Shown one piece after another: positions 20,428 through 56,420 of a DNA stretch of 64,000 bases. The stretch comes from Candidatus Omnitrophota bacterium (GTDB lineage Bacteria > Omnitrophota > Gorgyraeia > Gygaellales > Profunditerraquicolaceae). Location of the stretch: the NCBI GenBank assembly GCA_041651115.1, contig JBAZJY010000002.1, positions 350,855-414,854 on the forward strand. Direction: 5' to 3'. The notes beneath the pieces were generated by a model, which did no database searches, was not told the DNA's origin, and saw nothing but the letters and a program-made list of their open reading frames with translations. Position 1 is the first letter of the stretch; each line of letters begins with the position of its first letter. The translations under genes and the position numbers were made by a program.

Positions 20428-20439
20428 AGAGTTTTTCTT

Positions 20440-20793: not shown

Positions 20794-21399
20794 ATGACAA
20801 TACAAGAGCGCTACGAAGCATTAAAAGGTAAAGTCGTTAAGAGAAAGAAGGAATTCGATTCCTTCATAAAGATGTTGGAGTCAGAGTCAAGTTGGCTCAC
20901 AAGTCCGGCAAGCACGAGGTTCCATTTGAACAAAGAAGGTGGGCTTTTGGAGCATAGTGTTGGCGTTACTGAAACTCTCCTGAAATTCAGAGAGTTCCTC
21001 GCTCCTCAAATATCAGAGGAATCTTGCGTAATTGTTGGGCTTCTTCACGATGTCGGCAAGATAGGCATGCCTGGCAAACCTAGGTATTTGAAGAATGATA
21101 ACCAATGGGAGATCGATAAACGAGGTATTACCTATAAGATCAACCCCGCAGAGGTAGATATGAATCTTGCCGCACGCAGCTTGTATCTCATTGCAAAATA
21201 TATCCCGCTTTCTGACTCAGAGGCCCAAGCTGTTCTTTATCACGATGGCCAATTTTTAGATTTTAACAAGGAAGTGGCGCATAAAGAGACGCCCTTGACT
21301 CTTTTAGCGCATTGGGCTGATTACTGGACGGCGCATATCTATGAAGAAGGCCGTAGCATTAATGAAGATAGTGATTATTATACTGGAGATAGAAAATAA
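20794..21399 (+). CDS. HD-domain phosphohydrolase
   Basis: H..H, LLHDVGK and a late D motif of the HD superfamily. Confidence 0.7.
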   Translation: MTIQERYEALKGKVVKRKKEFDSFIKMLESESSWLTSPASTRFHLNKEGGLLEHSVGVTETLLKFREFLAPQISEESCVIVGLLHDVGKIGMPGKPRYLKNDNQWEIDKRGITYKINPAEVDMNLAARSLYLIAKYIPLSDSEAQAVLYHDGQFLDFNKEVAHKETPLTLLAHWADYWTAHIYEEGRSINEDSDYYTGDRK

Positions 21400-21401
21400 A
21401 T

Positions 21402-22355: not shown

Positions 22356-22371
22356 AAACTAGAAAGGCAGT

Positions 22372-23136
22372 ATGAATATACTTATTACAAATGACGATGG
22401 TATCAATTCTGATGGTATCTTCACTTTGTTCGAAGCGGTTAAAGAGCTTGGTAATGTAACCGTTGTAGCCCCTGATTCAGAACGAAGTGCCGCGGGCCAT
22501 GCTATAACGATATCCGATCCTTTGCGCGTGAAGACAGTGAACCGTAACGGTAAGTTTTTTGGATATGCGTGTTCAGGGACACCGGCGGACTGCGTCAAAC
22601 TAGCTGTAAGGGCATTGATGAAGGATAAACCCGACATAGTCATATCCGGGGTTAATCTGGGCCCAAACACTGGTTTTAGTGTTTTATACTCTGGTACGGT
22701 ATCAGGAGCAACTGAGGGTGCAATATTAGGCATACCAGCCTTTGCAATATCTCTGGGAACTTTCGATAACCCTGATTTTAGTATAGCAGCTGAATTTGCC
22801 AAAAAATTAGTAGTTCTGCTTAGAGAAAAAGGTCTTCCGAAGGGAACCCTGTTAAATGTCAATATCCCTGCTGTAAAAAATAGAAATGATATCAGAGGCA
22901 TAAAGGTTACTACTCAAAGCAAGACTTCATTGGTAGAGCATTTCGATAAGCGGGAGGATCCCCGTAAACACGTCTATTACTGGCTTACAGGTGAGCTGAT
23001 AGAGTTGGACGGGGAGGAAGATAGTGACATCAAAGCACTACGGGATAATTTTATCTCCATAAGCCCCGTTCATTGTGATATGACTAACCGCGCCTTTATC
23101 GATGAGCTAAAGAAGTGGGATTTTGAGAGGCGTTAA
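22372..23136 (+). CDS. surE: 5'/3'-nucleotidase SurE
   Basis: MNILITNDDGINSDGI N-terminus and a SurE-like core. Confidence 0.85.
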   Translation: MNILITNDDGINSDGIFTLFEAVKELGNVTVVAPDSERSAAGHAITISDPLRVKTVNRNGKFFGYACSGTPADCVKLAVRALMKDKPDIVISGVNLGPNTGFSVLYSGTVSGATEGAILGIPAFAISLGTFDNPDFSIAAEFAKKLVVLLREKGLPKGTLLNVNIPAVKNRNDIRGIKVTTQSKTSLVEHFDKREDPRKHVYYWLTGELIELDGEEDSDIKALRDNFISISPVHCDMTNRAFIDELKKWDFERR

Positions 23137-24206
23137 AATATATTAAAGGCCCGGCTGCAACCCAAGCTTTTGTTTTTTAAATACCAGCCTAAATTATCCA
23201 ATTCTCTATTGTCTTTTACGATCTGTTCGTAAATGTCCTCCCAAGTCAGATGGGTAAACCGCTTTTTGTATTCAGCTTTTAACATAGAGCGGACATTACG
23301 CATAACAGGCATGCTTTCAGGCTCGCCGCGCTTTAAATTCATCGCGTGCCTGTTCCTTAAGTTCACTACATACCATCTTTTCGCGCCTTCCAAATGAGCC
23401 ATTGATGCAGCGAATACAATATTCCTAAATAGCTGCTCGTAGAATGGGTTCGGCATATCACTAAAATCAAATATGCTGTTAGTATCTATTAGTTTGTTAT
23501 GGGTGCAGTATCTCGTTATTGACCTATCTGCTGCTTTTGGCTTTTCGCCCTCAACATCTTCTTTTTCTTTTGCTATAGAGTTTTTACTCCCAAACTTAGC
23601 CTCTATACATATGATAACCTTATTCGGGACGACAAGCATTATGTCCGGTTCAGTAGCGAATCGCTTTATATCACTTTCAAGGTGCTTGCGAACATCTAAT
23701 AGAGGGGCGTAAGGCGTGAATTTATTGTTTTTAAGATCAATCTTTCCGCCCCACAGATACAAGTCTACCTTATCCTTTATATCTTCATTGATTATTTGGC
23801 TCGCTAGTTTATTTAGCGCCAGTCCGTTTGATAGTAGCTCCGTAAATACATTGTAAGATACCGCATCTTCGCTGTTTTCATAGCACAGCCTTCCAGATTC
23901 CATTTTGTTGCCTTTTTTGAAGAAATTTGCTATGTAGTATTCTCCATTGAATAATAAATTACGCTTGGTGGCGGTCAGCAGGTTTGAGTCAAAGGGCCCA
24001 TTATAATATACGAATCCATTGGTATGTATCCGCAGGCCGTGTTCAGGGCAGAAGGGTAAATATCTCATTTTACCCTTGAAGCGCTGGAAGGGAACCTTAT
24101 GGCTATGGGTATCTGATGAGCAGTTTTTGATTGGGCAGCTATTAGGAAGTCTCGTTTTTTGAAGGTCGTTTCTGAAGAATGATATTGTGCAGCTTGAATC
24201 GGGCAT
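23133..24206 (-). CDS. PD-(D/E)xK-type nuclease with N-terminal Cys-rich (Zn-ribbon-like) region
   Basis: PDIMLVV...IICIEAKF matches a D..(D/E)xK core; CPIKNC...CPEHG; convergent with surE. Confidence 0.5.
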   Translation of the reverse strand: MPDSSCTISFFRNDLQKTRLPNSCPIKNCSSDTHSHKVPFQRFKGKMRYLPFCPEHGLRIHTNGFVYYNGPFDSNLLTATKRNLLFNGEYYIANFFKKGNKMESGRLCYENSEDAVSYNVFTELLSNGLALNKLASQIINEDIKDKVDLYLWGGKIDLKNNKFTPYAPLLDVRKHLESDIKRFATEPDIMLVVPNKVIICIEAKFGSKNSIAKEKEDVEGEKPKAADRSITRYCTHNKLIDTNSIFDFSDMPNPFYEQLFRNIVFAASMAHLEGAKRWYVVNLRNRHAMNLKRGEPESMPVMRNVRSMLKAEYKKRFTHLTWEDIYEQIVKDNRELDNLGWYLKNKSLGCSRAFNIF

Positions 24207-24462
24207 AGGTTATTTTTCATTGTAGCTCCCTAAAATAATAAGGGAGCGCATATCTGCTACCGGCAACGTTCAAGTAAATCCGATAGAGCTGCATTTCTCC
24301 CTGCCCTTTCGGGCAACGAAACAGCTCCACCATACTTGAACGTTCACAGGGCTCTCCCCTGTGTTATGGTAGAAACGAACTGCTCCTGATTGTAAAAACT
24401 AACTAAAGTATATCAGCCGGTTAGGTTATTGTCAATTGAGCTATGTTAGGAAGCATAGTTAT

Positions 24463-24596
24463 TTTTTAACTTTTTTGGGCTGGCAAAAAGCTACCTGTTT
24501 ATTGTGTATGGTCATAGTTTGACTTGTGCTGGGAGATTTTATGCTGATAAATGATTTTACCTTTTGAGCCAAAAATAACCCAACCTATGCCCTGTT
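24463..24596. repeat. 134 bp direct repeat, copy 2
   Basis: Perfect match to 20294..20427. Confidence 0.9.
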
Positions 24597-24648
24597 TCTA
24601 AATATATCCAATCTTAATCAGGCACGTGATGCTTCTAAGTAAAAGCCC

Positions 24649-24676
24649 TTGACTTTTTCAAAATGTAGCATATAAT
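24649..24676 (+). promoter_or_regulatory. Strong sigma70-like promoter (TTGACT, 16 nt spacer, TATAAT)
   Basis: Near-consensus hexamers read from the sequence. Confidence 0.55.
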
Positions 24677-24683
24677 TTTATTC

Positions 24684-24795
24684 AAGATACGATATAGTGG
24701 TGCGTTACGGAGAGGGAACCTCCACTTTAAAAAAGTAAAATCTCCACGAGCCGATTGCTCATGCACATTTGCGCTTGTGGGGATTTTTTATTTTA
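24684..24795 (+). ncRNA. Candidate sRNA (about 110 nt) with its own promoter and intrinsic terminator
   Basis: No ORF; internal ggagaggg/cctcc hairpin; terminator stem tctccacgagc/gcttgtgggga plus TTTTTTATTTT at 24741..24795. Confidence 0.4.
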
Positions 24796-24911
24796 TAGGG
24801 AAATTAGCTTGGTTAATTGACAAGACGAAAGGTAGGTGAATAATCTTTTAGGTATCTTGAGCGACCGAGTTTAAGTATAAAAACTATAAATATTGAAAAC
24901 GGAGGACTTAA

Positions 24912-25142
24912 ATGGGTAAAAATCAGCACGTTGTGCCTTATGGTGATAAGTGGGCAGTTAGAGGTGAGAAAAACAGCAGGATAACTTCTGATCACCACAC
25001 GCAGGGAGCGGCGATTAGTGCTGCAGTAAAAATAGCCAAGCACGAGAAATCAGAAGTAGTGATACACGGCAGGGATGCGAAGATTCGGGATAAAGATAGC
25101 TACGGATCTGATTCTTGCCCGCCAAGAGACAAAAAATATTAA
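24912..25142 (+). CDS. DUF2188-like small protein (paralog 1)
   Basis: NQHVVPYGDKWAV...EVVIHGRDAKIRDKDSYG pattern; paralog at 27304. Confidence 0.6.
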   Translation: MGKNQHVVPYGDKWAVRGEKNSRITSDHHTQGAAISAAVKIAKHEKSEVVIHGRDAKIRDKDSYGSDSCPPRDKKY

Positions 25143-25272
25143 AATACTAGAGGGGCATGAAAATGCCCCTCAGTTCTAATGTATTTTTGTGGCTTATAGA
25201 AGGAAATGGTAATATAATACAATATGAATCATAAGGGATAGTATATACAGATGCAGGACAAGATATCCTAAA

Positions 25273-26019
25273 ATGAAAAATATTGAAACTATAGGTCTTT
25301 TTAAAAAAATATTACAGCCCGCATTTATTATAACTATTGCTACGTGTGTAGGATATCTATGGGGTTGGCATTATATAGATGGTTATTTAGAACGTTTTGG
25401 ATTAAATCATGATTCCTTTGAATTTTCTTTAACCTATTATTTGAATCAGTCGTTCTTTATATCCATTTTTCTTGCAATGATTTTGTTTTTTTCCATAGGT
25501 AGAAAAAAAGATTCTCAGTTGACTATCCCTCAAGCCTTTCAGCAGAACTCAATCATTTTATTATTTTTAGGAATTGGCTTGTCGATGGCATTTAAAGATT
25601 TTCCCTCCCCGAATGCAATAATGATACTGTTAAATTCATTAATTTTGTTAATTTATTTTGTTAGATTAAGCTGTAAGAAAAAAACGATTATCTCGGTTAT
25701 TGAGAATGAAGGGTCGCCAATAGTATTTCTTTTAGCTTTCTTATTAATGATTTTACTAGGACTTTTGATTAGTAGAGATTTCGGAGAAGAACATGCCCGG
25801 AGGACCATCAGTGGCGCACTTAATAATTTATCTTCGATCTCTTTTGTATCTGATAATCCATCAATCACTGATCTCAACAAAAAAGAATTAAATCTTATTT
25901 TTTATCATAATAGTAACTATTATTTAGTTGAAAAAGAACAGCCAGCGCCTAAGTTCCCTAAAATTTTTATTGTTCCAGATAAGAATATAGAGTATGTAAT
26001 TTGTAAAAAATTTAATTAA
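25273..26019 (+). CDS. Hypothetical polytopic membrane protein (AT-rich gene)
   Basis: Multiple hydrophobic segments; very low GC compared with its surroundings. Confidence 0.5.
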   Translation: MKNIETIGLFKKILQPAFIITIATCVGYLWGWHYIDGYLERFGLNHDSFEFSLTYYLNQSFFISIFLAMILFFSIGRKKDSQLTIPQAFQQNSIILLFLGIGLSMAFKDFPSPNAIMILLNSLILLIYFVRLSCKKKTIISVIENEGSPIVFLLAFLLMILLGLLISRDFGEEHARRTISGALNNLSSISFVSDNPSITDLNKKELNLIFYHNSNYYLVEKEQPAPKFPKIFIVPDKNIEYVICKKFN

Positions 26020-26126
26020 TTTATGATTATATAGTAACTCAATGAACCTATGTTAATGGTGATTGTAGGCGTTGGTAAATATCATGGACAGAGAACACGC
26101 TAAACAAAAATGATTAAAGGAACTAT

Positions 26127-27293
26127 ATGCGCAGAGGCATAGTTGATATCGTACAGGAGAATAGCAGGGACATAGAAAGAAAAATTCTTTCTGAGTTCGC
26201 GACAAAAAGTTGTGATGCTTTAAGGCGGTTACCGGAGAAATTAGGCGTTAGGCCCGATTTCTTTAGGGACACGGATAGGATATTGCATTCTAAATGTTAT
26301 GCGAGATATATTGATAAAACACAGGTATTTTATTTATTTGATAATGATGATATTACTCATCGAGTATTACATGTTCAATTTGTCTCTAAGATTGCCAGAA
26401 CCATTGGTAGAGCTTTAAAACTGAATGAAGATTTAATTGAAGCAATAGCGTTAGGGCACGATGTTGGGCACCCTCCCTTTGGGCATGAAGGTGAAAGTTA
26501 CTTAGACGAACTTTGTTTGCATTACAAAATAGGTCATTTTGTTCATAGTGTTCAAGGAGTAATTTTTTTAGACAAAATTGAGAAAAGAATGGAGATAAAA
26601 CCATTGAATTTAAGTTTACAAGTTTTAGATGGCATACTTTGTCATGATGGCGAGAAATTTAATGATTATTTAATACCTCAAAGAAAGAAAACATGGTCAA
26701 CACATTATAATGAACGAAAGGAGAAGATGTTTAACAAGCAAGTAGCGCTCGTTCCAATGACCATGGAGGGTTGTGTTGTTAGATTTGCGGATGTTGTAAG
26801 CTATATTGGAAGAGATATTGAAGACGCTATAACGCTAAGACTAATAAAAAGACAAGATCTGCCAAGGGAATGTACAAAGGTATTAGGGGATAATAACAGA
26901 GATATAATTAACACATTAGTTACCGATTTGATAGAAAACAGCAAAAGAATTGGCGACAGGATATATTATAGTAAAAGAACCTCTAAGGTTTTAAAGAAAC
27001 TTAAGAAATTTAATGACAAAAATATCTACTTGAATAAAAAAATAAAGAGAGAATCCCCAAAAAATAAAAAATTATATACTCTTCTATTCGAAGAATTTCT
27101 TCATGATATAAAAGTAAAAAACAGTAGATCAGAAATATTTACTCAATGGAGTGACATTAAAGATGCCAAGTATATTTCAAAATGTAGACACCCAGAAATC
27201 GTACGCGATTTTTTGTCATCTCTTACAGATGATTATTTTATAGGGCTTTTTGAACGGAAATTTTTCCCAAGAAGATTTGGAATACATTTCTAA
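26127..27293 (+). CDS. dGTP-triphosphohydrolase-like HD-domain protein (Dgt family-like)
   Basis: H..RxxH at the N-terminus, ALGHDVGHPPFGHEGE signature of the dGTPase family, later D motif. Confidence 0.7.
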   Translation: MRRGIVDIVQENSRDIERKILSEFATKSCDALRRLPEKLGVRPDFFRDTDRILHSKCYARYIDKTQVFYLFDNDDITHRVLHVQFVSKIARTIGRALKLNEDLIEAIALGHDVGHPPFGHEGESYLDELCLHYKIGHFVHSVQGVIFLDKIEKRMEIKPLNLSLQVLDGILCHDGEKFNDYLIPQRKKTWSTHYNERKEKMFNKQVALVPMTMEGCVVRFADVVSYIGRDIEDAITLRLIKRQDLPRECTKVLGDNNRDIINTLVTDLIENSKRIGDRIYYSKRTSKVLKKLKKFNDKNIYLNKKIKRESPKNKKLYTLLFEEFLHDIKVKNSRSEIFTQWSDIKDAKYISKCRHPEIVRDFLSSLTDDYFIGLFERKFFPRRFGIHF

Positions 27294-27303
27294 AGGAGGA
27301 GAG

Positions 27304-27534
27304 ATGAGTAGAAACCAACATGTCGTTCCCTACGGAGACAAATGGGCTGTGCGAAAAGAAGGGAATACTAGGATAACATCTTCACACATAACTCGGAGAG
27401 ATGCTATCCATACTGCGAATAGAATTGCTTCGTCGGAAGCTTCTGAAGTGGTTATACATGGTAGAGACGGGAGAATTCGAGATAAAGACAGTTACGGTTA
27501 CGATGCGTTACCACCACGATGCAGGAAATACTAA
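27304..27534 (+). CDS. DUF2188-like small protein (paralog 2)
   Basis: MSRNQHVVPYGDKWAV...EVVIHGRDGRIRDKDSYG; RBS aaggagga; ORF-track start 27250 rejected. Confidence 0.6.
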   Translation: MSRNQHVVPYGDKWAVRKEGNTRITSSHITRRDAIHTANRIASSEASEVVIHGRDGRIRDKDSYGYDALPPRCRKY

Positions 27535-27686
27535 TTTTTAAAGAAAGAGGACTCATTAATCTGAAAGAAATCAAGGCTGTCAAGAGAGGTAGTAGTTGGC
27601 ATGATCTCACCTTTTAATATCGTCAAGAAAGGTCAAAAATATAGCCTTTGTTAATTCCATTTAGTCCCCCCTATAAGTGAATACTA

Positions 27687-27935
27687 TCAAGCTAATTTAC
27701 ACTCGAATTCATCTAAGTCCTGCCGGCTTTTAGCAATGATTTCTTTTATGCATGTCTGGCAGTAAACCTTTCTTCCCATGCTGCCGGGAATAGGAACTAC
27801 AATGCATACAGTTCCTCCGTAAATCGCTGTGTTGCACCTTTTGCAAGTTCGTTTTCCTTTTGCAGTGTCTAATTTTGGCGCTCCATGTGTTCCATTGATA
27901 AGAGAAGGACATTTTCCACGTTTTTTACTTATCAC
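27687..27935 (-). CDS. Small Zn-ribbon protein (82 aa)
   Basis: CKRCN...CIVV...CQTC Cys quartet; directly downstream of the helicase and overlapping it. Confidence 0.45.
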   Translation of the reverse strand: MISKKRGKCPSLINGTHGAPKLDTAKGKRTCKRCNTAIYGGTVCIVVPIPGSMGRKVYCQTCIKEIIAKSRQDLDEFECKLA

Positions 27936-29952
27936 CCTTAGCCTCCTTTTTAGTTAAGCGTCTTGTTAGGACATTGAGAATATTGTCAAGGGCTTCTATC
28001 GCTTTTACATAGTCTTCAGTTCGTAACTTTTCCCGTTCGCCTTTTTCAATTCCGAGCTGCTTATTTACCTCATGATTTATAAGTTGGACAGCGGCTGCAA
28101 AGTTAGGCCCAGTGACTCCACTACTCTGAGCAAGTTTATAGGCTAAATCTTTTCCGTCAAATGAGATGTCCAAGCGATTCAACAATAGTTTTGCCGCTCG
28201 TTTTACCTCTTCATGCAAACGTCGCTTCGCCTCGTTCCTTTGCCGTTGGGGAATTACAGGGAAAGGTATGGTGGATTCCACTTTGTTTATTTTATCCCCT
28301 TGTTTATTTTTGAGGAATTCTGCTATGTCTTGAGCATCAATTCCAAGTGACTCAGCGGTAGCTTTCATTTCTTCGATAAGTATCTCGTCTTCCACATCAA
28401 TGAAATGTTCCTGTAGGAAGCTATCCACTATTTCATTGCGAATGATCGTAGATTCACTAAGTTTTAATCTTGTACTACCTTCAAGCACCTCTCGAGGAGG
28501 CTCGGGTTCTTTGCCTTTAATAATATCTGTGAAGAATTCTCGGTCGTCCCTGTCAATTTCACGGAAATCAGCAAGATGGGTATCTATGTTAAGCCCAATA
28601 TGTGTTACTATGTGACCATAATTATCAGGGTGTCGAGGGTCATTTTGGACGATGACACGCATTACTCGACCAACGAATTGGACATACGGTGGTAGGGTGC
28701 GGAAAGGCCTAAATATAGCTGCAACACTTAAATGAGGGTGGTCAAATCCCTCGCCGAGCATTTGAACTTGGATAATACAATCTAAGGCGCCCGCTCTCAA
28801 TTTATTTAAGACAGCATCTTGCTCATCGGGTAGCATTTTACTATGGATTTCCGCTGCTTCATAACCACGCTCAGCATATAGAGAGCGTATTGCCTTTGCA
28901 TGATTTACTGAACACGCAACTGCTATTAGTTGGTGCTTTGTTCCAGATTGCCGCAGATGTTCGAGTTTGTCGAGACTTGCGTCTACGATATTTTTATTAC
29001 AGACTGGGGATAAAGCCACACCACGACTAAACCATTCTTCATCTTTTAACACCAATACTTCTTCAAGTGTGTGGTATTTTTCATCACCTTCATATGTAAA
29101 ATAGAGTTCTTTAGGTGCGACATATGTTGCCTGTAATTTTTTTATGTAGCCTTTTATCATTGCCCGTTTGAATGAATACTTGTAAATTAGTTCACCTTCA
29201 ATTTCTTGTTGGTCACTTCTGAATGGCGTAGCAGTTAAATTAACAACCTTTGCATCCGGGAATCTACTAAATACTTTTTTCCAACTCGGGGCCGCACTAT
29301 GGTGTCCTTCGTCTACCAGAATCATATCAAAGAAATTATTTGTAAACTGTGGGAGCCAGCGGTCGGCGCTACTCGCCAGTTGCTGTATATTTGTCAAAAC
29401 AAAATGCGACTGTTCGCAATCATGGATGTTGGCATCGATGCTATCGAGAATAGCAAGATACGGGCCGGCTAAGGTTACGTCCGGATTCAGCACCCGGCAT
29501 TTAAACCAGAAGCAGTTTCTACGATTGGCGATATCTAAAGCCTTTCTTAATTCATCTCTGATGGTGAGATTTGGCGCGATCACGAGGATCCTTCCTTGGG
29601 CAATTCCAAGTGGAAGTAACGTAATGAGCCCTGATTTTCCACATCCAACCGGTAATTGAATTAACGCTTTTTTGGCTCCTTTCTCGAAAAAATTACGGGT
29701 TGCTATGTATGCTTCTTTCTGTGGGTCTCTTAATAGTAAATTGTCTTCTATTTTGAAATCCAGCGAAGCAAAGAAATTACCCATGGATTTATTAGCTTTT
29801 ATCCACTTGTCTAATTCAAGAACTTGGAATCGCCACATTTTTCCTACTTTGTGAGCAGGTATCCGGTTGCTCTGCGCAAGTGCGTATAAATTCGTTATGC
29901 TGATATCAAGATATTTTGCTGCTTCCTCTGCGTTTAGCCATTCTTCTCTCAT
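27925..29952 (-). CDS. HTH (excisionase/MerR-like) + SF2 DEAH/ResIII-type helicase
   Basis: N-terminal LNAEEAAKYLDISITNLY...HKVG.MWRF HTH; Walker A PVGCGKSG; DEGH box; TATP motif III; QFVGRVMR motif VI. Confidence 0.75.
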   Translation of the reverse strand: MREEWLNAEEAAKYLDISITNLYALAQSNRIPAHKVGKMWRFQVLELDKWIKANKSMGNFFASLDFKIEDNLLLRDPQKEAYIATRNFFEKGAKKALIQLPVGCGKSGLITLLPLGIAQGRILVIAPNLTIRDELRKALDIANRRNCFWFKCRVLNPDVTLAGPYLAILDSIDANIHDCEQSHFVLTNIQQLASSADRWLPQFTNNFFDMILVDEGHHSAAPSWKKVFSRFPDAKVVNLTATPFRSDQQEIEGELIYKYSFKRAMIKGYIKKLQATYVAPKELYFTYEGDEKYHTLEEVLVLKDEEWFSRGVALSPVCNKNIVDASLDKLEHLRQSGTKHQLIAVACSVNHAKAIRSLYAERGYEAAEIHSKMLPDEQDAVLNKLRAGALDCIIQVQMLGEGFDHPHLSVAAIFRPFRTLPPYVQFVGRVMRVIVQNDPRHPDNYGHIVTHIGLNIDTHLADFREIDRDDREFFTDIIKGKEPEPPREVLEGSTRLKLSESTIIRNEIVDSFLQEHFIDVEDEILIEEMKATAESLGIDAQDIAEFLKNKQGDKINKVESTIPFPVIPQRQRNEAKRRLHEEVKRAAKLLLNRLDISFDGKDLAYKLAQSSGVTGPNFAAAVQLINHEVNKQLGIEKGEREKLRTEDYVKAIEALDNILNVLTRRLTKKEAKGDK

Positions 29953-29990
29953 CGTAGCCTCCTTTGATAACTGATTTCATAATACCATAT

Positions 29991-30052
29991 TTAAATACGA
30001 TGTCAATTAGTATTATTTAGTATCATTTAGTATCATTTAGAGTTATTTATTA
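29991..30052. repeat. Short tandem/iteron-like repeats (tatcatttag family) in a divergent promoter region
   Basis: attagtattatttag / tatcatttag / tatcatttag / agttatttat in series. Confidence 0.5.
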
Positions 30053-30296
30053 ATGGGGTAGATATTTAAATCTAAAAGATTTCTTTGGGTAGCTGCGTTG
30101 AAATACTCAAGTTTTCTCTAAAAAACTTTTACCTTTTTAGCATAACTCCCCTCGGCATAAGCAGTTAGTAAATTCCTTCCATTCATTTCAGAGTTAATTT
30201 CCGTCGGTAAAATTACATAAAAGGTTAAAACTTTTTTACATTTTTCATTGACAAATAAGTACCATATGGTTCTTATATTGTTAGGAGGTGATTGTT

Positions 30297-31112
30297 ATGA
30301 ATTCCGACGAGATTGCGGTTGGCTATATACGAGTTAGCAGTATCAATCAGGTGGAAAATGGTGGTGGTTTGGCTATCCAGAGGAAGAAGATAACCAACTT
30401 CTGCAGAGAAAAAGGCTACAATCTAGAACGTTTCTACGAAGAAAGGGGAATTTCCGGCAGCATTAAAGAACGCCCTGCGTTATTAAGATTGTTAAAGGAC
30501 TGCGAGTCTGGTTTAATCAAAAGGGTAGTAGTTTTTCGTCAGGATAGGTTAGCTCGTGAATTAACAGTTTCCCTCTGGCTCGAGACTCAATTCAAGAAAT
30601 ATGATGTAGCAGTCAGCTCAGTTCTGGATCCAGAACTCGATATGAATGACCCGCTGCAGCTCGCTTTTAAAAGGCTGATTGATGTGTTTGCTGAATTAGA
30701 GAAAACACTTATTGTGACCCGTCTTAGAGAAGGCCGGGTTGATAAGGCCGAGAATGGACGTAGAGCTGTCGGTGCAATTGCTTTTGGCTATTATAAAGAG
30801 AAAGACGGTTTGGTTGTTAACCTTGAAGAATCCGAATGGGTGAAAAAGATTTTTCGGAACGCAGCTAAGGGAAAGAAATACTCAGAGATTGTGGCGATGC
30901 TTAAAAAGAACGGCGTAGTTACACGGCGAAAGAAACCGTTCAGTATTGAAACAGTTAAGTATGTCTTACGAAACTCTTTTTATTATGGTGAGTCAACCTA
31001 CGGCGATATAAAGAGCAGGGGGGAGCATAGGCCTATTATTAGTAAACGACTTTTTGTTAGAGTTCAAAAGGTCAAAAGGAAAGAAGTATTGTTACCAGCT
31101 AGGGTTTCGTAG
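30297..31112 (+). CDS. Serine recombinase (resolvase/invertase family)
   Basis: VGYIRVSS catalytic Ser motif, RLARE; RBS aggagg 8 nt upstream of ATG 30297. Confidence 0.8.
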   Translation: MNSDEIAVGYIRVSSINQVENGGGLAIQRKKITNFCREKGYNLERFYEERGISGSIKERPALLRLLKDCESGLIKRVVVFRQDRLARELTVSLWLETQFKKYDVAVSSVLDPELDMNDPLQLAFKRLIDVFAELEKTLIVTRLREGRVDKAENGRRAVGAIAFGYYKEKDGLVVNLEESEWVKKIFRNAAKGKKYSEIVAMLKKNGVVTRRKKPFSIETVKYVLRNSFYYGESTYGDIKSRGEHRPIISKRLFVRVQKVKRKEVLLPARVS

Positions 31113-31631
31113 TTCGTTGATGTTCATTTTTTCCGAATGGCTCTGGAATTCTGGCATATGAGGCCAACAGGATACTTCCTGAAGTCGCTTTAAATGTTCT
31201 TGAGTGACGATTAGTGATTCCCGTTTTTTCCCGTTGCGAAGAAGGCTTCTAAAGAATTGACGCCTTAAATAATAATCAAGTTTCTTAGCATTTTTAAGGT
31301 AAGAATCGTAATCCTCAGGGTCATCATGGACTTTTCTAATCCAGTCGATTATTGTATTGGGTCGGGTATTAAGCGCGCGGGCAATATCGATAATACGCAT
31401 CCCGTTATTGTATCGACCAATTGCATCATCGAATTTATCGGGTGACACGCGCATTCCTTTGAAAAATGGCTCTTGAAGTAGCGTGAATGCTTTTTTGCAG
31501 CTTCGACAGTAAATCCTCTGCACTGCGGGTTTATTTTTCAACCTGCGTTTCCCGTAATAAATAGCGATTTTGTGACATTCTGGACAAGGTTCTTTGTAAG
31601 GCATAGGTAGATTATACCGCAGAAACGCCAA
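31092..31631 (-). CDS. InsA-like Zn-ribbon + HTH protein (IS1-type transposase N-terminal fragment or regulator)
   Basis: CPEC...CRSCKKAF Zn ribbon followed by an HTH (IIDIARALNTRPNTI). Confidence 0.45.
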   Translation of the reverse strand: MAFLRYNLPMPYKEPCPECHKIAIYYGKRRLKNKPAVQRIYCRSCKKAFTLLQEPFFKGMRVSPDKFDDAIGRYNNGMRIIDIARALNTRPNTIIDWIRKVHDDPEDYDSYLKNAKKLDYYLRRQFFRSLLRNGKKRESLIVTQEHLKRLQEVSCWPHMPEFQSHSEKMNINELRNPSW

Positions 31632-31833
31632 CTGTCAAGCGATATAAAACGACAGCTAACCGATATAGGAGTCTTTATTGATTAAAAATATTTTTTTTCT
31701 GGTTCTGTAACTTATTGTATAACAGGATGATGCATCATTGAATTTTTTTAAAGTTTTTCTGAATTGGTGCGTATTAATTCTGAAGGGGGGAGTTCAGACA
31801 CGGTTAGTTCCCCTCAGAAGGAGGTGAGGTTAG

Positions 31834-32016
31834 ATGGAGCGCTTTATTAAGGTTGAGTGTTTGAGATGTGGTGAGCAATACTATATACCAGCGTATAAGC
31901 TCCCGCAAGAAAAGGCAGAGATTCTTGATGCAGCTTTCCCTAGCAGGTGTCCCTTTTGCGAAGATAGCGATTACGCTGTATTAACAGTTCCAAACGAACT
32001 TAAGAAAAGGAAATAA
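31834..32016 (+). CDS. Small Zn-ribbon protein (60 aa)
   Basis: CLRCG...CPFC; strong RBS aggaggtgag. Confidence 0.35.
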   Translation: MERFIKVECLRCGEQYYIPAYKLPQEKAEILDAAFPSRCPFCEDSDYAVLTVPNELKKRK

Positions 32017-32095
32017 CACGGTGCAGCAGGAGTTTGGGTTGTTATCCTGAACTCCTGCTGCCAAAAAATGTAATTTAAGCTATGGAGGTAATCAA

Positions 32096-32320
32096 ATGAA
32101 GGCAATCTGGAATGGCGAAAAGTTATTGATTAGACGCAAACAAGTAGGGTTAACTATGGCTGAATTAGCCGCAAAAGTGGATTGTGACCGGCCATTGGTG
32201 TCAATGTGGGAAGCAGGCAAGGTAGCTCCGTCCGGGCATTTTCTTGTGATGCTCGGCATCACATTGAATATTGAGCCGAAAGAGTTTTATAATCTGGAGG
32301 ACGAAGGAGTGCAGCTATGA
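32096..32320 (+). CDS. XRE/Cro-type HTH regulator
   Basis: LTMAELAAKVDCDRPLVSMWE HTH. Confidence 0.6.
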   Translation: MKAIWNGEKLLIRRKQVGLTMAELAAKVDCDRPLVSMWEAGKVAPSGHFLVMLGITLNIEPKEFYNLEDEGVQL

Positions 32321-32508
32321 GTAACCTTTTAACTCCAGAGCAAGTATGCGAGAGGTATGGTATAAGCCGGTGGACGCTCTATCAGTGGACATCCAAGCAT
32401 CTTATACCATATCTCAAGATTAGAGGGCTAAACCGTTTCAGGGAAGAAGATCTTGAGAAGTGGGAAGAACAAAATCTGGTAAGCGATGGGAAGGCTGAAT
32501 TGGTATGA
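32317..32508 (+). CDS. xis: Excisionase / AlpA-like HTH protein
   Basis: QVCERYGISRWTLYQW motif; immediately upstream of the integrase and overlapping it. Confidence 0.6.
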   Translation: MSNLLTPEQVCERYGISRWTLYQWTSKHLIPYLKIRGLNRFREEDLEKWEEQNLVSDGKAELV

Positions 32509-33572
32509 GACAGCGTTATCGAATGCCAAAATCTATTTACCCCCGTGGCAACTGGTATTGCTTTAAGGTAACTACTTCTTATGGCAAGAGAGTCGAGGTT
32601 AAGTCAGCCACCATGGAAGAGGCGCGTAAGAAACGCAACGATATAGAGCGTCAGATATTCAGTGCCGTGTCTGGAGATCCATCCTATAGAGTTAGCCTTG
32701 AGCATGGAATAGGGTTTTGGCTAAAAATTAAGAAAGGAAGTATCGACGATACCTCATATGATAGATACCGGGGATGTTTAGATAACTTCCTTGATTATAT
32801 TAAGGCAAAACGCTCCGATTTACAATATTTCGACCAAATAAAAGCGGAGGACATTAAGGCATTTATGGACTATCGGATCGAAGAGAAGGGGCGGGCGACT
32901 AAGACCGTGAATTCTGAAAGGCTGGCTTTATACAACTTATTTCTTACCTTGATTAAACATAAGAAAATTGAAGGTAGTAATCCCGTGGAAAATGTTGACC
33001 CATTAAAAATGATTAAGGTCCAAAAGAGGCATGCTCTTTCTGATGAGGAATTGTTGAAATTTCTTGAGGGTGCCAAGGCAGAAAGCGGGGCTATTAATTG
33101 GTATGCTATCTTTCTTACCTTATATATAACCGGCATGAGAAGGGATGAGGTTCGGAAGATGGAGAAAACAGCAATAGACCTGTCCAGAAATCTGATAATT
33201 ATTTTGAACACCAAAACCGATAAGCCAAAGATCATACCGATACATCCTGAATTGCGGCCAGTATTGCAGCAGGCGTTGGGGCAGTCCAATAGCGGCTTGG
33301 TATTTCCTAACTCTAAAGGCGGGCTGCTTCATAAGAACAAAATTCGGGATAAGATGATTCAGATATGTGAGAGGGTCGGTATCCCTAAAGCAACGGTTCA
33401 CGATTTACGCCATACATTCGCGAGCCGCCCAGAATTATCCGGTATGGCCAAGCAACTTATAGGCGGTTGGAGCAGCAAGCAGGTAATGGAGAAAACCTAT
33501 ATTCACGCCCCCGAGGATTATGTTCGAGATGAGTATTTTAAGGTTAAGTTCATACCGAAGGCAGGAAACTAA
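32505..33572 (+). CDS. int: Tyrosine integrase (phage integrase family)
   Basis: Conserved R...HDLRHTFAS...Y catalytic region; adjacent to attR. Confidence 0.85.
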   Translation: MRQRYRMPKSIYPRGNWYCFKVTTSYGKRVEVKSATMEEARKKRNDIERQIFSAVSGDPSYRVSLEHGIGFWLKIKKGSIDDTSYDRYRGCLDNFLDYIKAKRSDLQYFDQIKAEDIKAFMDYRIEEKGRATKTVNSERLALYNLFLTLIKHKKIEGSNPVENVDPLKMIKVQKRHALSDEELLKFLEGAKAESGAINWYAIFLTLYITGMRRDEVRKMEKTAIDLSRNLIIILNTKTDKPKIIPIHPELRPVLQQALGQSNSGLVFPNSKGGLLHKNKIRDKMIQICERVGIPKATVHDLRHTFASRPELSGMAKQLIGGWSSKQVMEKTYIHAPEDYVRDEYFKVKFIPKAGN

Positions 33573-33649
33573 TGTCACGCTATCGTCACGAAAGGATGTT
33601 GCAAATGTCAGAACCTTCTGATAATATAGATAATTATGCAAAACCGGGA

Positions 33650-33669
33650 TCCGATTCCCTCCCTCGGCA
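33650..33669. repeat. attR: second copy of the 20 bp tRNA-Phe 3' core
   Basis: tccgattccctccctcggca identical to 16724..16743. Confidence 0.8.
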
Positions 33670-51593: not shown

Positions 51594-51712
51594 GCTGGAA
51601 AATTCATTTACAAGCATTATTCGTTCTGTTAATATAGTAAGTAAGAGATCGGACAGTTTGAAGTTGAAGCTGCTTCTTTGACAGCGAACAGTAGGAAATA
51701 ACGCGCGATATT

Positions 51713-51789
51713 CGCGGGGTGGAGCAGCCTGGTAGCTCGTCAGGCTCATAACCTGAAGGCCAGAGGTTCAAATCCTCTCCCCGCAATTA
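51713..51789 (+). tRNA. Initiator tRNA-fMet (anticodon CAU); CCA not encoded
   Basis: CGCGGGGTGGAGCAGCCTGGTAGCTCGTC.GGCTCATAACC...GGTTCAAATCC..CCCCGCAA closely resembles the canonical bacterial initiator tRNA. Confidence 0.85.
51770..51786. repeat. att core (aaatcctctccccgcaa) at the tRNA-fMet 3' end
   Basis: Identical 17-mer at 56341..56357. Confidence 0.7.
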
Positions 51790-51890
51790 ATTCAACAAGA
51801 AGGCAGTCAATGAGTTACATCGTTGGCTGCTTTTTTGTTTATTAGTATAATCTATTATGTGCTAACGCTGTGCTAGCAGAATCTCTAAAT

Positions 51891-51977
51891 CGCCATCCCC
51901 CGGAGGGGTATCTGGCTCGATCCTTATAGGGTAAGTCAGTGATCACCCGTCACAGAGAACCTCCACGGAAATATTTT
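51891..51977 (+). ncRNA. Conserved roughly 90 nt non-coding motif, copy A
   Basis: GC palindrome cccccggagggg, then atctgg...tataggg.aag...cacccgtcacagaga.c.cc.cgg.aatattt; second copy at 53462..53547. Confidence 0.35.
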
Positions 51978-52217
51978 TAAGATAGGTAAAATGTAGCGTA
52001 ACTCATTAAATTAAATTAGGTTACGGAAAGAAAATGCACTATGTTTTAAGATTAAAAAACTGTTATTTAGTGTGTCCAAAACAGGTAAGCGGAAAGTGTT
52101 AAAAAATAAAACACCAATATGCGCGCGAATTATTAAGTTAGGATCGCATATAGTCTACTCCTTATGTTCATTGACAAGATACGTGGGTTGTGCTATCTTA
52201 TCACTTTGGAGAACATA

Positions 52218-53075
52218 ATGCTAAACGCAACCACCCAACAAAAAGAAAAGATAGTATTTCTCGGACCCGAAGAAACTTATAGCCACAAAGCAGCAAAATC
52301 TTTATTTGGCGACAAAGTTATCTATAATCCAGTAGCAAGCTTTGATTCCGTTATAAATGCGGTCATAGAGAAAAAGGCAGATAAGGGAGTTATTCCTTTC
52401 TTTAACCCTTACGAAGAACATATACGTGAATGCCAGGATAAGTTATTTAAGACTGAGTTAATAGCTACCGGTGTAACAAAAATAGATATCGATTTAACTT
52501 TAGCTACAAATAGATTAAAACTCGATGAAATCAAAAAAGTTTATTCAAATAGCCACGTATTTAAGCAGTGCGATATATGGCTAAGAAAAAACCTCCCAGG
52601 GGTTATTACCGAATTGGTAACGAGCACGGCTAAAGCAGCCGAAGAGGTAAAAATTATCCCGGGTTCTGCAGCGATATGCTCTTTAGAATCAGCGATGAAA
52701 AATGAGCTTGATACGATCGCTGAGCGTATACAAAATCCTAAGAACTTTACCTTATTTTTCGTTATTGAGCGTTCCGATTCTATAGCGCAGCGTAAAGAGT
52801 GGGGGTATTATTCATTTTTGTGTTTTAAGCTTAATAGTTCAAAAGAAAAAATGAATATTTTAGATATCCTTGATGCCCATCATTTACGGAGTTCACAAAA
52901 ATGGGATTTTCCTCATCCGTCAGATGATTATTTGCTTTTCTTTTTAGAATTTTTTGGCAGCTGGCTCGATCTTAATGTTGTGGCTTTTATCGCCGATTGC
53001 AAAAAGTATTTTAAAGACTTTAGATTAATTGGTACATTTGATCATAGTATTACCAAGGTATTGGAAACGATTTAA
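52218..53075 (+). CDS. Prephenate-dehydratase-like (PDT + ACT-like) protein
   Basis: IVFLGPEETYSHKAA...GVIPFFNPYEE...VYSNSHVFKQC...NFTLFFVIER pattern; ATG 52218 with RBS ggag preferred over the ORF-track start 52164. Confidence 0.5.
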   Translation: MLNATTQQKEKIVFLGPEETYSHKAAKSLFGDKVIYNPVASFDSVINAVIEKKADKGVIPFFNPYEEHIRECQDKLFKTELIATGVTKIDIDLTLATNRLKLDEIKKVYSNSHVFKQCDIWLRKNLPGVITELVTSTAKAAEEVKIIPGSAAICSLESAMKNELDTIAERIQNPKNFTLFFVIERSDSIAQRKEWGYYSFLCFKLNSSKEKMNILDILDAHHLRSSQKWDFPHPSDDYLLFFLEFFGSWLDLNVVAFIADCKKYFKDFRLIGTFDHSITKVLETI

Positions 53076-53116
53076 TTTCAGTTGACAAGAAAAAAAAACC
53101 TAATATACTAAAAGAG

Positions 53117-53389
53117 ATGGATTCTATGAGACAGGACTCCCCAAAACCTTTTTTAACCTTAGCAATAACTGAAATAAACGGCTGGGCCATGGCTTTATGC
53201 CCCGAGTTGGAAGTTTCTGCTTGTGGACCGGACCGGAATATTGCTGTTAATGATCTAAATGATATGATAAAACGCAACGCTTCTTTGATATTAAAAGGTA
53301 AAGAGCACGTACCGTCTCATGTTGTCGAGTGGGCAAAAGAAATTGCGAAGCAAACTGATGTCACTATTCTTTTTAAAAGACAGATATAG
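53117..53389 (+). CDS. HicB-like (UPF0150) antitoxin-fold protein
   Basis: WMALCPELEVSACGPDRNIAVNDLNDMI resembles the HicB N-domain. Confidence 0.4.
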   Translation: MDSMRQDSPKPFLTLAITEINGWAMALCPELEVSACGPDRNIAVNDLNDMIKRNASLILKGKEHVPSHVVEWAKEIAKQTDVTILFKRQI

Positions 53390-53461
53390 TAAATAGTATT
53401 GAGGTCGTATTTCAGAATTCATTAGGCTGGACTTAACTGTTCAGTCTTTTTTGTTTGTATT

Positions 53462-53547
53462 GATGCCCCCCCGGGGGGGCATCTGGTTTACCCTATAGCG
53501 GGTACAGTTATAACCACCTGTCACAGAGATAACCCCCGTAAATATTT
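53462..53547 (+). ncRNA. Conserved roughly 90 nt non-coding motif, copy B
   Basis: gatgccccccc/gggggggcatc perfect palindrome followed by the same conserved blocks as copy A. Confidence 0.35.
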
Positions 53548-53807
53548 CAGTTAAAAGCATTGACAAAATTTAATTTTGAGCTATACTCAAACTAGTGCGT
53601 GGAGCTCGCACTTAGCTAAATTAACCTTAGGGTGCCGGTAGGCACGAAGGAAAGGAGTCGTGAGATGAAAAAACATTTTTGGTAACAGCTACACATTGAA
53701 TAAGTGTGTAGTTTTTTGTTTATATGGCCCGGATGGGCTAAGGTTTACCCTTGGAAGGTACTGGACTGTAGAAGATTATTGGATCTATAAATAAAAAGGA
53801 GAATGAA

Positions 53808-54998
53808 ATGGATAAGAAAAAATTAGAGAAAGTTATTCTAAAATCAGACTATTCCCGCCGCTATCCAGACCCACTTAACAGTACCCAGGTTGAAGAAACT
53901 TATAGCATTGAACACCATGTGCTTCTGTGTAAAGCAAAAGATGTTCCTTCGGGAATATCCAAAGAGCCTAACCCCAGAGAACAGAGGATTGATTTGGGTA
54001 TCTATAAGGATATTCAGACCAGTCTGGAGGATGGAGAAGAACCGACTTTTCATCTGAAAAACAAAGGGATTACCTTATTGGCGCACAGCATCGATTACAG
54101 CGAAGATAAAAAAGTCGCCACAGTATACCTAGGTGAAAAAGATGGTATAGCTGACGGTGGGCATACTTATGAGATAATCCTCAATGCGATATCAAGAGGA
54201 GCCTGTCCGGATAGCCAGTATGTAAAATTCGAAATTCTTACTGGCGTTCCAAGCAGTATGGCCGTTGATATAACAGGAGGGTTAAACACCGCCGTTCAGG
54301 TACAAGAAGCCAGCTTGGCTAATCTGGAAGGTGCATTTGATTGGATTAGAGAAATTATTAAGCGTGAGCCCTATGCTGATAAAATAGCGTTTAAGCAGAA
54401 TGAAAGGAAGGACGTTGACATAAGGGATATAGTAGCTTTCCTTACACTCTTTAACGTTGAACAAAAGAGTTTAAAGGGTAGGCATCCGAGGGAAGCGTAT
54501 ACTTCGAAGGCCGCGTGTTTAAATCTTTACAAGGATGACCAGGATTCCTACGAAATGCTCGCTCCAATTCTGAAGGATATTCTGTACCTCAGCGATTACG
54601 TCCATATTAAATCTAGGGAAATCTACAATGCCGAGACAGGCGGTAAAGCTGGTGGCATGAAGGGTGTCTATGAGGGAAGGTTAAGGGGGAAGTTTCATTT
54701 TGTGTTTATGGATACCGATTATGAGTATAAGCTTTACAGCGGCACCCTATTCCCAATCTTAGGTGCCTTAAGATATCTTGTGGAGAAGAAACCAGGCCAA
54801 AACGTATATTCATGGAAATTGCGTTCGTTTGAAGAAGTAAAATCCTTCTTCAACAAGATAGCTGCTGATATGGTAGGCATTACCTATAACACGAGTATAA
54901 ACTATGGCAGAAAGCCGAATGCGGTAGGTAAAGATGAAAACCATTGGGATAATCTATATAAGACTGTAGCCTTAGCTTATCTGCAGGGTCGTCGTTAG
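53808..54998 (+). CDS. Hypothetical protein (396 aa), possibly abortive-infection-like
   Basis: ORF with RBS aaaaggaga; no confident motif; located in the islet next to the RES-like gene. Confidence 0.45.
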   Translation: MDKKKLEKVILKSDYSRRYPDPLNSTQVEETYSIEHHVLLCKAKDVPSGISKEPNPREQRIDLGIYKDIQTSLEDGEEPTFHLKNKGITLLAHSIDYSEDKKVATVYLGEKDGIADGGHTYEIILNAISRGACPDSQYVKFEILTGVPSSMAVDITGGLNTAVQVQEASLANLEGAFDWIREIIKREPYADKIAFKQNERKDVDIRDIVAFLTLFNVEQKSLKGRHPREAYTSKAACLNLYKDDQDSYEMLAPILKDILYLSDYVHIKSREIYNAETGGKAGGMKGVYEGRLRGKFHFVFMDTDYEYKLYSGTLFPILGALRYLVEKKPGQNVYSWKLRSFEEVKSFFNKIAADMVGITYNTSINYGRKPNAVGKDENHWDNLYKTVALAYLQGRR

Positions 54999-55055
54999 AG
55001 TATCTCTAAACGGGGGGCTTAATAGCCCCCCCTCTTTATTGGAGAAAATAAGTCT

Positions 55056-55970
55056 ATGGCAAGCGGAATTAAGAAAAGAAGTCTCACGGAAATAAGCTCT
55101 CAAATAGATAAAATTAAGAAATTGGATCTTAAAGTAGTTGATTTTATGGAAGTTCATAAGGAAATAAGAATCCTAATGAGCGAGTATACAGCTGTAGGAT
55201 TTCCAGCTTTACAGAATACTATTTATCGAGCAAGGCCTAATGATAAAGATAAGTTGTTTGAAACCATTAGTGATATGTGGGCCCCTCGTCCGGAAAAAAT
55301 GCCCCAGAATAGATTCGGCAGGGCAAACAAGCCCAGAAAACCGGTTTTCTATTGTAGTAATCGTGAAGAGACAGCCATTTCTGAATTACTAATTAATGAA
55401 GGGGATTGTGTAACAATTATGCGATGTTGTAGCAGAGGGGATACATCTGCTATGATGAATGTCGGGTTTGGTTTCAGGGATGAAGGGAAGCTACAATCTA
55501 AGGATGGAAAGACCATTATAAACTGGGGAAAGTACAAGGAAGAAAAGATACGCCGGTTATATAGTAAACAATATAGTATAGATAGGATCGTTCAGGAGTG
55601 TTTATTGAAAAATAAAATGATAGACGGGTTTTTGAATCAAGAATTTCGTAAAGAGATTAATTCTGACGAATGTAACTATGAGTATAAAATTACTGCTGCC
55701 ATCGCTAGTTTATATTTAGATAATCCCTTATCACATGTGAGGCTCGATGCGATTAGCTACCCAAGTATACGTACTGGTCTATCGGCTGGACCTAATTGGG
55801 CATTCACGATCGAATCAGCTAACAAATTTTATAAACCTGAACATTTAGAGACTATAGAGATTGACAAAATTGAAAATAAAAGCGAATCTATAAAATATTC
55901 TGGTAATGCTCGGTTTAAATCAAAAGAGATAAAGCACTCGGGACAAATTATCTGGGAAAAGCTAGTATAA
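55056..55970 (+). CDS. RES-domain-like protein (putative NAD+-targeting toxin family), 304 aa
   Basis: NRFGRANKPRKPVFYCSNREETAISE resembles the R-x-E-x-S core of RES toxins; longer than typical. Confidence 0.35.
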   Translation: MASGIKKRSLTEISSQIDKIKKLDLKVVDFMEVHKEIRILMSEYTAVGFPALQNTIYRARPNDKDKLFETISDMWAPRPEKMPQNRFGRANKPRKPVFYCSNREETAISELLINEGDCVTIMRCCSRGDTSAMMNVGFGFRDEGKLQSKDGKTIINWGKYKEEKIRRLYSKQYSIDRIVQECLLKNKMIDGFLNQEFRKEINSDECNYEYKITAAIASLYLDNPLSHVRLDAISYPSIRTGLSAGPNWAFTIESANKFYKPEHLETIEIDKIENKSESIKYSGNARFKSKEIKHSGQIIWEKLV

Positions 55971-56340: not shown

Positions 56341-56357
56341 AAATCCTCTCCCCGCAA
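56341..56357. repeat. Distal att copy (aaatcctctccccgcaa followed by CCA)
   Basis: Exact 17-mer match to the tRNA-fMet 3' end. Confidence 0.7.
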
Positions 56358-56364: not shown

Positions 56365-56420
56365 AGTAGGGACAGAGACTATTTTTATTTACAAAAAATA
56401 GTCTCTGTCCCTACTTTTTT
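56365..56420. terminator. Perfect 22 bp stem bidirectional intrinsic terminator
   Basis: agtagggacagagactattttt...aaaaatagtctctgtccctact followed by tttttt. Confidence 0.7.

Follow-up and report, generated by a model that had tools for sequence, protein, structure and literature searches.

Two Copies of an Intergenic Motif in a tRNA-Linked Island

A noncoding motif of about 90 nucleotides (nt) occurs twice in a 64,000-nt stretch of DNA from a Candidatus Omnitrophota bacterium (contig JBAZJY010000002.1, positions 350,855 to 414,854; we refer to the whole stretch as the window and count positions from its first letter). Both copies lie in an island of 4.6 kb at a tRNA-Met gene, which has a GC content of 34–42% as compared to 45–52% outside. 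The last 17 nt of the tRNA gene recur exactly at the far end of the island, a match found in 0 of 100 shuffles, and between these att-like repeats are four genes, all on the plus strand, for a divergent prephenate-dehydratase-like (PDT-like) protein, a protein of 87 amino acids (aa), an AIPR-family protein, and a RES-like protein. The features of the island are as follows.

51712–51787, plus strand: tRNA-Met gene
51770–51786, plus strand: left att-like repeat, AAATCCTCTCCCCGCAA, the last 17 nt of the tRNA-Met gene
51893–51981, plus strand: motif copy 1, from alignment, hidden Markov model (HMM), and covariance model (CM)
52171–53457, plus strand: module bracketed by the two copies (promoters, two genes, terminator)
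52171–52199, plus strand: sigma-70-like promoter
52218–53075, plus strand: PDT-like gene
53082–53109, plus strand: second promoter
53126–53389, plus strand: 87-aa gene
53424–53447, plus strand: stem of the intrinsic terminator of the 87-aa gene, with a T-tract to about 53457
53462–53552, plus strand: motif copy 2, from alignment, HMM, and CM
53556/53560–53807, plus strand: conserved leader of the AIPR gene, about 220 nt, starting 7–12 nt past copy 2
53808–55970, plus strand: second island module, with the AIPR-family gene (53808–54998) and the RES-like gene (55056–55970)
56341–56357, plus strand: right att-like repeat, matching the 17 nt at the tRNA-Met 3′ end exactly

Copy 1 starts with a hairpin (51895–51911) of the form AT-CCCC/GGGG-AT with one bulge, followed by ATCTGG (51910–51915), GTCACAGAGA (51949–51958), and AAATATTT (51969–51976), with a C-rich decamer, ACCTCCACGG, between the last two. 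Copy 2 has at its 5′ start a perfect 22-nt palindrome, GATGCCCCCCCGGGGGGGCATC (53462–53483), followed by ATCTGG (53481–53486), GTCACAGAGA (53520–53529), and AAATATTT (53540–53547), with TAACCCCCGT in the place of the decamer, and its right edge is CAGTT. Because the spacing of the blocks (33 and 10 nt) is the same in both copies, a core of 67 nt, ATCTGG-33-GTCACAGAGA-10-AAATATTT, aligns without gaps, preceded in each case by the G/C hairpin, and 43 of its 67 positions are identical. Local alignment of the two intergenic regions, each of about 420 nt, gave a score of 56, as compared to 20.0 ± 2.3 (maximum 31) for 500 shuffles, and a repeat of the test gave z = 14.6. A first-pass annotation of the window, made from the letters alone, had described two similar copies of about 90 nt with shared blocks and a G/C palindrome at the start of each, and on both counts our results bear it out.

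The similarity is limited to about 90 nt; the flanks have only a terminator tail, CTTTTTTGTTT, in common. The copies are 1.57 kb apart in direct orientation and bracket the PDT-like/87-aa module. The annotation had placed them 170 to 250 bp upstream of the next open reading frame (ORF) and in the same orientation; the orientation held, and the measured distances, 241 nt to the ATG of the PDT-like gene (52218) and 260 nt to that of the AIPR gene (53808), come close to that range.

A Third Copy and the Conserved Anatomy

An HMM built from the two window copies only detected, among the matches listed, a third copy on an unrelated metagenome contig, Ga0315291_10306032 (locus L116, with an identical sequence in L207) at an nhmmer E value of 1.5e-14. 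It has the same hairpin, blocks, and 33- and 10-nt spacings, shares the right edge CAGTT with copy 2, and lies upstream of a gene for an SGNH/GDSL hydrolase. Over the core, this copy (L207) is identical to copy 1 at 49 of 67 positions and to copy 2 at 44 of 67; all three copies are 64–73% identical, with no insertion or deletion (indel).

The third copy bears on the origin of the other two. A recent duplication of a tandem type within the island would account for the closeness of the window copies and for their direct orientation, but their cores are just 64% identical and nothing beyond the 90 nt has been duplicated. Moreover, copy 1 matches the foreign copy at more core positions (49/67) than it matches copy 2 (43/67), which excludes a recent local duplication, and we regard that origin as extremely improbable. 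To judge from these comparisons, the two window copies have separate histories. The first-pass annotation had named a lack of further copies and of structural covariation, or a recent local duplication, as the outcomes that would tell against its motif; what we found was a copy elsewhere, and one closer to copy 1. It had also suggested a covariance-model search for relatives. In the window, this search returned only copies 1 and 2 even with filters off, as did the two-copy and three-copy HMMs, and the further copy was the one on the metagenome contig. A stretch at 53718–53760, which has a local resemblance to copy 2 alone, was considered as a third window copy and rejected: neither the HMM nor the CM detected it, and it is part of the conserved AIPR leader.

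Comparison of the three copies brings out further regularities. In all of them a hairpin of 6 to 9–11 base pairs (bp) extends up to or into the AT of ATCTGG. Every copy has imperfect inverted arms of 16–18 nt (CCGGRGG..TMTCTG and its complement), 36–38 nt apart, and a lineage-specific change in these, GGAGG/CCTCC versus GGGGG/CCCCC, is mirrored in both arms. Two short palindromes, CYGTCACAG and AAATATTT, also stand at invariant spacing. Blocks and spacing are invariant across the copies, and the sequence between them drifts.

The Motif Is Independent of the Genes Next to It

The space from the end of the T-tract of the 87-aa terminator (about 53457) to the −35 element of the AIPR leader (53560) is almost entirely taken up by copy 2. 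By position, therefore, the cassette boundary that the annotation had offered as one reading is a fitting description: the copies bracket the PDT-like/87-aa module, and copy 2 lies between the terminator of that module and the promoter of the next.

The right-hand limit of this junction is set by the AIPR leader. Homologues of the AIPR gene of 70–90% identity (L074–L080) have the same leader, the similarity beginning at the −35 hexamer TTGACAAA (53560 in the window), and none of them has the motif upstream, including one with 90% protein identity; the HMM and CM searches gave the same result. Since the leader is common to homologues that lack the motif, it marks where the junction ends, and the long gap upstream of the AIPR gene is accounted for by this separate, conserved, structured leader. 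The motif is likewise absent from all six PDT-like/small-protein loci, also by HMM and CM, and from the locus of a 77%-identical SGNH homologue, again by both models. The modules downstream of the three copies (PDT-like/87-aa, AIPR leader, and SGNH hydrolase) are unrelated to one another, and because homologues of all three occur without the motif, the element is a portable unit that is part of none of them. Sharp ends and a fixed length set it apart as a discrete unit, and it does not act as a regulator of the PDT-like gene or of the AIPR gene.

Coding, RNA, and attC-Like Readings

The annotation had taken the motif to be noncoding, and indeed its substitutions show no preference for any codon position, and in-frame stops occur in copy 1. 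A small ORF on the minus strand, with a conserved Shine–Dalgarno (SD)-like GGAGG and a GTG, was considered and rejected: codon-position differences are even (5/6/8, 4/5/6, and 6/4/7), two in-frame stops interrupt it in copy 1, and the peptide differs between copies. Also rejected was an intrinsic terminator: what comes after the hairpin is YAUCUGGYU, a terminator scan flagged copy 2 alone and weakly, and the real terminators are found upstream of copy 1 and of copy 2. By eye, a minus-strand promoter (GTGACA...TATAGG) has spacers of 17, 19, and 21 nt, which is inconsistent across copies, and the same inconsistency across the three copies disposed of a sigma-54 promoter, a DnaA box, a dif/Xer site, and an IS200/IS605 or repetitive extragenic palindromic (REP) head.

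A cis-regulatory RNA was another suggestion of the annotation. Such an RNA would be transcribed with its neighbors, and a switch between the 5′ hairpin and a long-range helix would affect read-through, stability, or translation. RNAalifold does propose an 11-pair long-range helix (GGRGGGG:CYCC and UCUG:CAGA) that competes with the 5′ hairpin; as read from the sequences, the arm with the G-run looks like an SD sequence and the 3′ decamer like an anti-SD sequence; and a predicted 10/12 promoter at 51823–51851 could transcribe copy 1. The check for compensatory substitutions that the annotation had proposed came out on both sides, with one such pair in the long-range helix and one in the hairpin but a covariation term of just +0.34, which for three sequences says little either way. 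Against an RNA, plus-strand folding of the three copies gave z-scores of −0.8, −1.9, and +0.8, no better than shuffles, and Rfam 15 returned no gathering-score match for the motif in the window and nothing relevant at E ≤ 10 in 51600–54000. In addition, an intrinsic terminator precedes copy 2 and the next promoter follows it, and no consistent unit of promoter and terminator recurs across the copies. A sigma-70-like promoter is predicted a short way downstream of copy 2, and another can be read by eye at a similar place after the third copy. With folding, covariation, and Rfam all unsupportive, and with the motif linked to no downstream gene family, the suggestion is not supported in the form in which it was made, and we consider a cis-acting RNA of any kind to be quite unlikely.

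The likeness to integron attC sites, which the annotation had also drawn, is one of general layout. Like attC sites and the clusters of attC sites lacking integron integrases (CALINs), which are noncoding repeats of about 60–140 nt, the copies are in direct orientation and bracket a gene module, and their inverted arms change in sequence and yet stay complementary. Chromosomal integrons, too, contain toxin–antitoxin (TA) and defence cassettes that have promoters of their own. There are nevertheless several differences. A regular-expression search of both strands of the three copies, with 25 and 12 nt of flank, found neither R″ (RYYYAAC) nor R′ (GTTRRRY). In place of a single long foldback, the minimum-free-energy folds of both strands consist of several small hairpins, and the shared helix is just an interrupted one of 10–11 bp. 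Each module here has its own sigma-70-like promoter and terminator, and no integron integrase lies in the island or nearby, the sole tyrosine recombinase seen in the window being 18 kb away, in an island at a tRNA-Phe gene. Finally, the motif keeps long blocks of primary sequence, whereas attC sites conserve structure more than sequence. The attC-like label does not apply.

A Candidate Junction Element Acting as DNA

The conserved anatomy, the independence from neighboring genes, the placement at module joints in low-GC, tRNA-linked DNA, and the position of copy 2 between a terminator and a promoter lead us to favor a DNA-level reading: that the motif is a portable noncoding junction element, a mobile or recombination site recognized by an enzyme acting in trans. 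We put this forward tentatively, with somewhat less than even confidence. The element would act as DNA rather than as RNA, and a transposase, HUH nuclease, or site-specific recombinase encoded in trans would recognize its conserved features, namely, the G/C hairpin or cruciform abutting YATCTGGY, the inverted arms, and the palindromic boxes CYGTCACAG and AAATATTT. It might insert into intergenic DNA behind terminators and so spread in the manner of miniature inverted-repeat transposable elements (MITEs) and REP sequences, or it might, like a cassette site, provide the crossover point for the joining, excision, or exchange of modules; we weight the two possibilities about equally. Any influence on adjacent transcription would be incidental. 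In either case, the motif is a new, rare family within a known general kind, that of small dispersed or junction repeats.

In several respects it resembles MITEs, REP sequences and bacterial interspersed mosaic elements (BIMEs), enterobacterial repetitive intergenic consensus (ERIC) sequences, and Correia-type elements: it is about 100 nt or less in length, noncoding, and intergenic, it has inverted repeats and a hairpin, and it is independent of neighboring genes, with such elements often standing beside terminators. It is unlike them in having no terminal inverted repeats at its very ends and no GTAG-type REP head, and in its very low known copy number, the 64-kb window having two copies that share a single island.

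A second likeness is to the origins of transfer (oriT) of the MOBP family, in which the nick region has the consensus (C/T)ATCCTG(C/T) directly after an inverted repeat (PMC3772185). In all three copies of the motif, an inverted repeat similarly abuts a YATC..G..Y string. The hexamer ATCCTG itself, however, is absent from both strands of all copies, ATCTGG being invariant in its place; unlike a MOBP oriT or a T-DNA border, moreover, the motif has 60 nt more of conserved sequence past the putative nick region, and the island has no relaxase gene.

Two such border sites, in direct orientation, mark the ends of T-DNA. A bolder version of the DNA-level reading, which we regard as a long shot, is that the motif is a new kind of cassette-boundary site, a functional analogue of attC sites or T-DNA borders that is unrelated to them in sequence. 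An HUH-type or site-specific enzyme would cut or recombine the hairpin and YATCTGGY, and modules of a defence or TA-like kind, such as the PDT-like/87-aa pair, would leave as circles or single strands and be swapped between tRNA-linked islands of Omnitrophota and their neighbors.

A number of observations weigh against a mobile or recombining element. Just three copies were found among the matches listed, two of them 1.5 kb apart, and no copy lies outside the island within the 64 kb, whereas a genome-wide MITE or REP family is usually more scattered. Exact-block scans, which first used the two best-conserved blocks of the motif, gave chance matches only and no true copy in 185,579 species genomes (GTDB), and with four patterns they found no true copy in IMG/VR; BLAST against plasmids and phages gave no match to the motif. 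The island contains no genes for a transposase, relaxase, or recombinase. Sequence conserved outside the inverted arms, a C-run on the left and AAATATTTYAG on the right, means that the arms are not clean terminal repeats. By eye, the flanks of the three copies have no short direct repeat in common of the sort left by target-site duplication; no true empty site was found among the homologous loci compared; and no direct repeats flank the PDT-like modules elsewhere in the loci tested.

The small number of copies and the failure to find a partner enzyme, which also count against the DNA-level reading, are what one might expect of functionless relics, that is, of pieces of a single ancestral intergenic segment, such as the end of an older element, that are decaying while recombination carries them along. 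A resemblance between copy 2 and the AIPR leader (score 28 versus 14.5 ± 2.1; see below) likewise points to local patchwork recombination. Neutral decay to 64–73% identity, however, should not spare invariant blocks of 6–10 nt, leave zero indels over 67 nt, and change both arms in mirrored fashion, and we judge this explanation improbable.

Invariant blocks and spacing with drifting sequence between them are equally what a cluster of protein-binding sites would display. As regulatory DNA, the CCCCGGGG-like palindromes together with CYGTCACAG and AAATATTT would form an operator, an insulator, or a site for a nucleoid protein upstream of promoters on mobile DNA. In keeping with this, each of the three copies points in the same direction as the gene that follows it, a sigma-70-like promoter is predicted after copies 1 and 2, and a promoter TTGCAC-17-TAGAAT can be read by eye downstream of the third. 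From the predicted promoter coordinates, AAATATTT of copy 2 would be about 48–55 nt upstream of the expected transcript start; UP elements sit at about that distance. The distance from AAATATTT to the next −35 element, however, varies among the three copies (12, about 30, and 194 nt), so that a role as an activator site or UP element cannot be general. Furthermore, no regulator gene accompanies the element, and in homologous loci the promoters that follow it are present without it. We consider this explanation, too, unlikely.

If the motif is a recombination or insertion site, as in the DNA-level reading, then it would show how small defence-type modules are shuffled in the tRNA-linked islands of Omnitrophota, an uncultured phylum, without integron machinery, and it would provide a sequence tag for finding module joints. 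As nothing more than a rare dispersed repeat, it would be ordinary. The boundaries of the island and of its modules are in any event now defined.

The Modules of the Island

The PDT-like protein has about 281–301 aa across loci, and its gene is always followed by one for a protein of 87–90 aa that is 48–67% identical to the 87-aa protein of the window. The pair is conserved, with its own promoter and terminator, in six unrelated contexts; it spans 52171–53457 in the window and, among the other loci, 257–1425 in L081, 1667–2838 in L082, 6001–7226 in L084, 6001–7166 in L086, and 3285–4448 in L210. Elsewhere its neighbors are GmrSD, YaaC, HEPN_AbiU2, and RadC/methylase or resolvase genes. On this comparative evidence, the pair is a conserved mobile two-gene module. 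A likeness of the L081 junctions to the motif was not significant. In two Omnitrophota-type contigs, L084 (at about 5720–5780 and about 7560–7620) and L086, inverted repeats of the type TGGGCAnnTTTTGGGCACA flank the region with the PDT-like module (z = 5.2). At L084 these repeats are unrelated to the motif, and another mobile element may have its ends there. PADLOC gave no match for the pair. The label “HicB-like” that the annotation had attached to the 87-aa protein was not verified, in that there was no match in Pfam, NCBIfam, or PDB sequences, and a single-sequence structure model had a pLDDT of 57, too poor for fold comparison.

The leader of the AIPR gene contains, in order, a promoter (TTGACA-16-TATACT), the hairpins GTGCGTGGAGCTCGCAC and GTGCCGGTAGGCAC, a ribosome-binding site (RBS) with a six-codon ORF (MKKHFW* in the window), an intrinsic terminator (53687–53713), and GGTACTGGACTGTAGAAGA. 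Its hairpin GUGCGUGGAnnCGCAC has three covarying pairs, hairpin UGCCGGnnGGCA is invariant, and GGUACUGGACUGUAGAAGA precedes the RBS of the gene. The leader recurs on unrelated contigs at L074 (66–313), L075 (2722–2957), L076 (5772–6003), and L079 (252–488). Viral AIPR relatives are only 33% identical and have neither leader nor motif. There is no Rfam match for the leader, which could be an attenuator, or an arrangement of small RNA plus gene, for a gene of the abortive-infection type, and which may be a better lead than the motif beside it.

A segment at 53446–53494, which takes in the sequence just 5′ of copy 2 and the first half of the copy itself (T-tract, G/C hairpin, and GGTTTACCCT), resembles the part of the leader that follows the terminator (53711–53751), 260 nt downstream. 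The score given above for this resemblance was reached by 1 of 500 shuffles, and the identity over GGTTTACCCT is missing in the 90%-identical AIPR locus L074. Local gene conversion or patchwork recombination could have produced it.

As to the island itself, we considered whether two elements that had homologous att arms could have integrated in tandem; this is not supported, the flanks beyond the 90 nt being dissimilar and an internal att core being absent. The island has neither an integrase nor a remnant of one: beside the right att-like repeat there was no Pfam match and no tblastn similarity to the integrase elsewhere in the window. Beyond that repeat, at 56367–56413, lies a bidirectional terminator with a perfect 20-bp stem.

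Other Elements in the Window and Elsewhere

The search pattern also brought up palindromic intergenic elements in metagenome-assembled genomes of many phyla. These consist of two to four tandem (G/T)CAC(A/G)GAG units, a centre of the AAATATTT type, and complementary CTCTGTG units, and they occur in 33 of 181 loci fished by the pattern (about 18%), as compared to 0 in 760 kb of other loci. Examples are L156 (at about 521), L060 (at about 3148), L096 (at about 3644), L202 (at about 12954), L030, L104, L012, and L067, with about 25 more. One sits between the terminator of an S-adenosylmethionine (SAM) riboswitch and the start codon of its gene. Rfam at gathering threshold assigned 12 example loci to no family, neither of two 16-nt strings from the elements was found in the literature searched, and to our knowledge these CACAGAG foldback elements are undescribed. 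Like the motif, they have GTCACAGAGA, a spacer of about 10 nt, and AAATATTT, as well as a TCTG–CAGA foldback logic. Unlike it, they have tandem units in each arm; the motif has one unit and a different 5′ hairpin, and its flanks are out of register. None was found in the window or in loci of Omnitrophota context. A relationship between the two is possible from these likenesses, but because the string they share is the one used for the search, the link may be an effect of ascertainment.

The window contains what is a second tRNA-linked island of a defence type. The 3′ end of a tRNA-Phe gene (16720–16743) is repeated at 33646–33669 (23 of 24 nt), and the 17 kb between (16720–33669) encode AAA ATPases, a family-A DNA polymerase, HD proteins, an AbiGi-like protein, REase-ARP, a helicase, and a tyrosine integrase (32505–33572). 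Within this island a 134-nt direct repeat, 100% identical between 20294–20427 and 24463–24596 and unrelated in sequence to the 90-nt motif, brackets 4.2 kb with the HD, AbiGi-like, and REase-ARP genes; it could stem from recent duplication or from assembly, or it could be a recombination site. Finally, a cyclic di-GMP (c-di-GMP)-I riboswitch is recognized by Rfam at 10782–10920, with a score of 73 bits.

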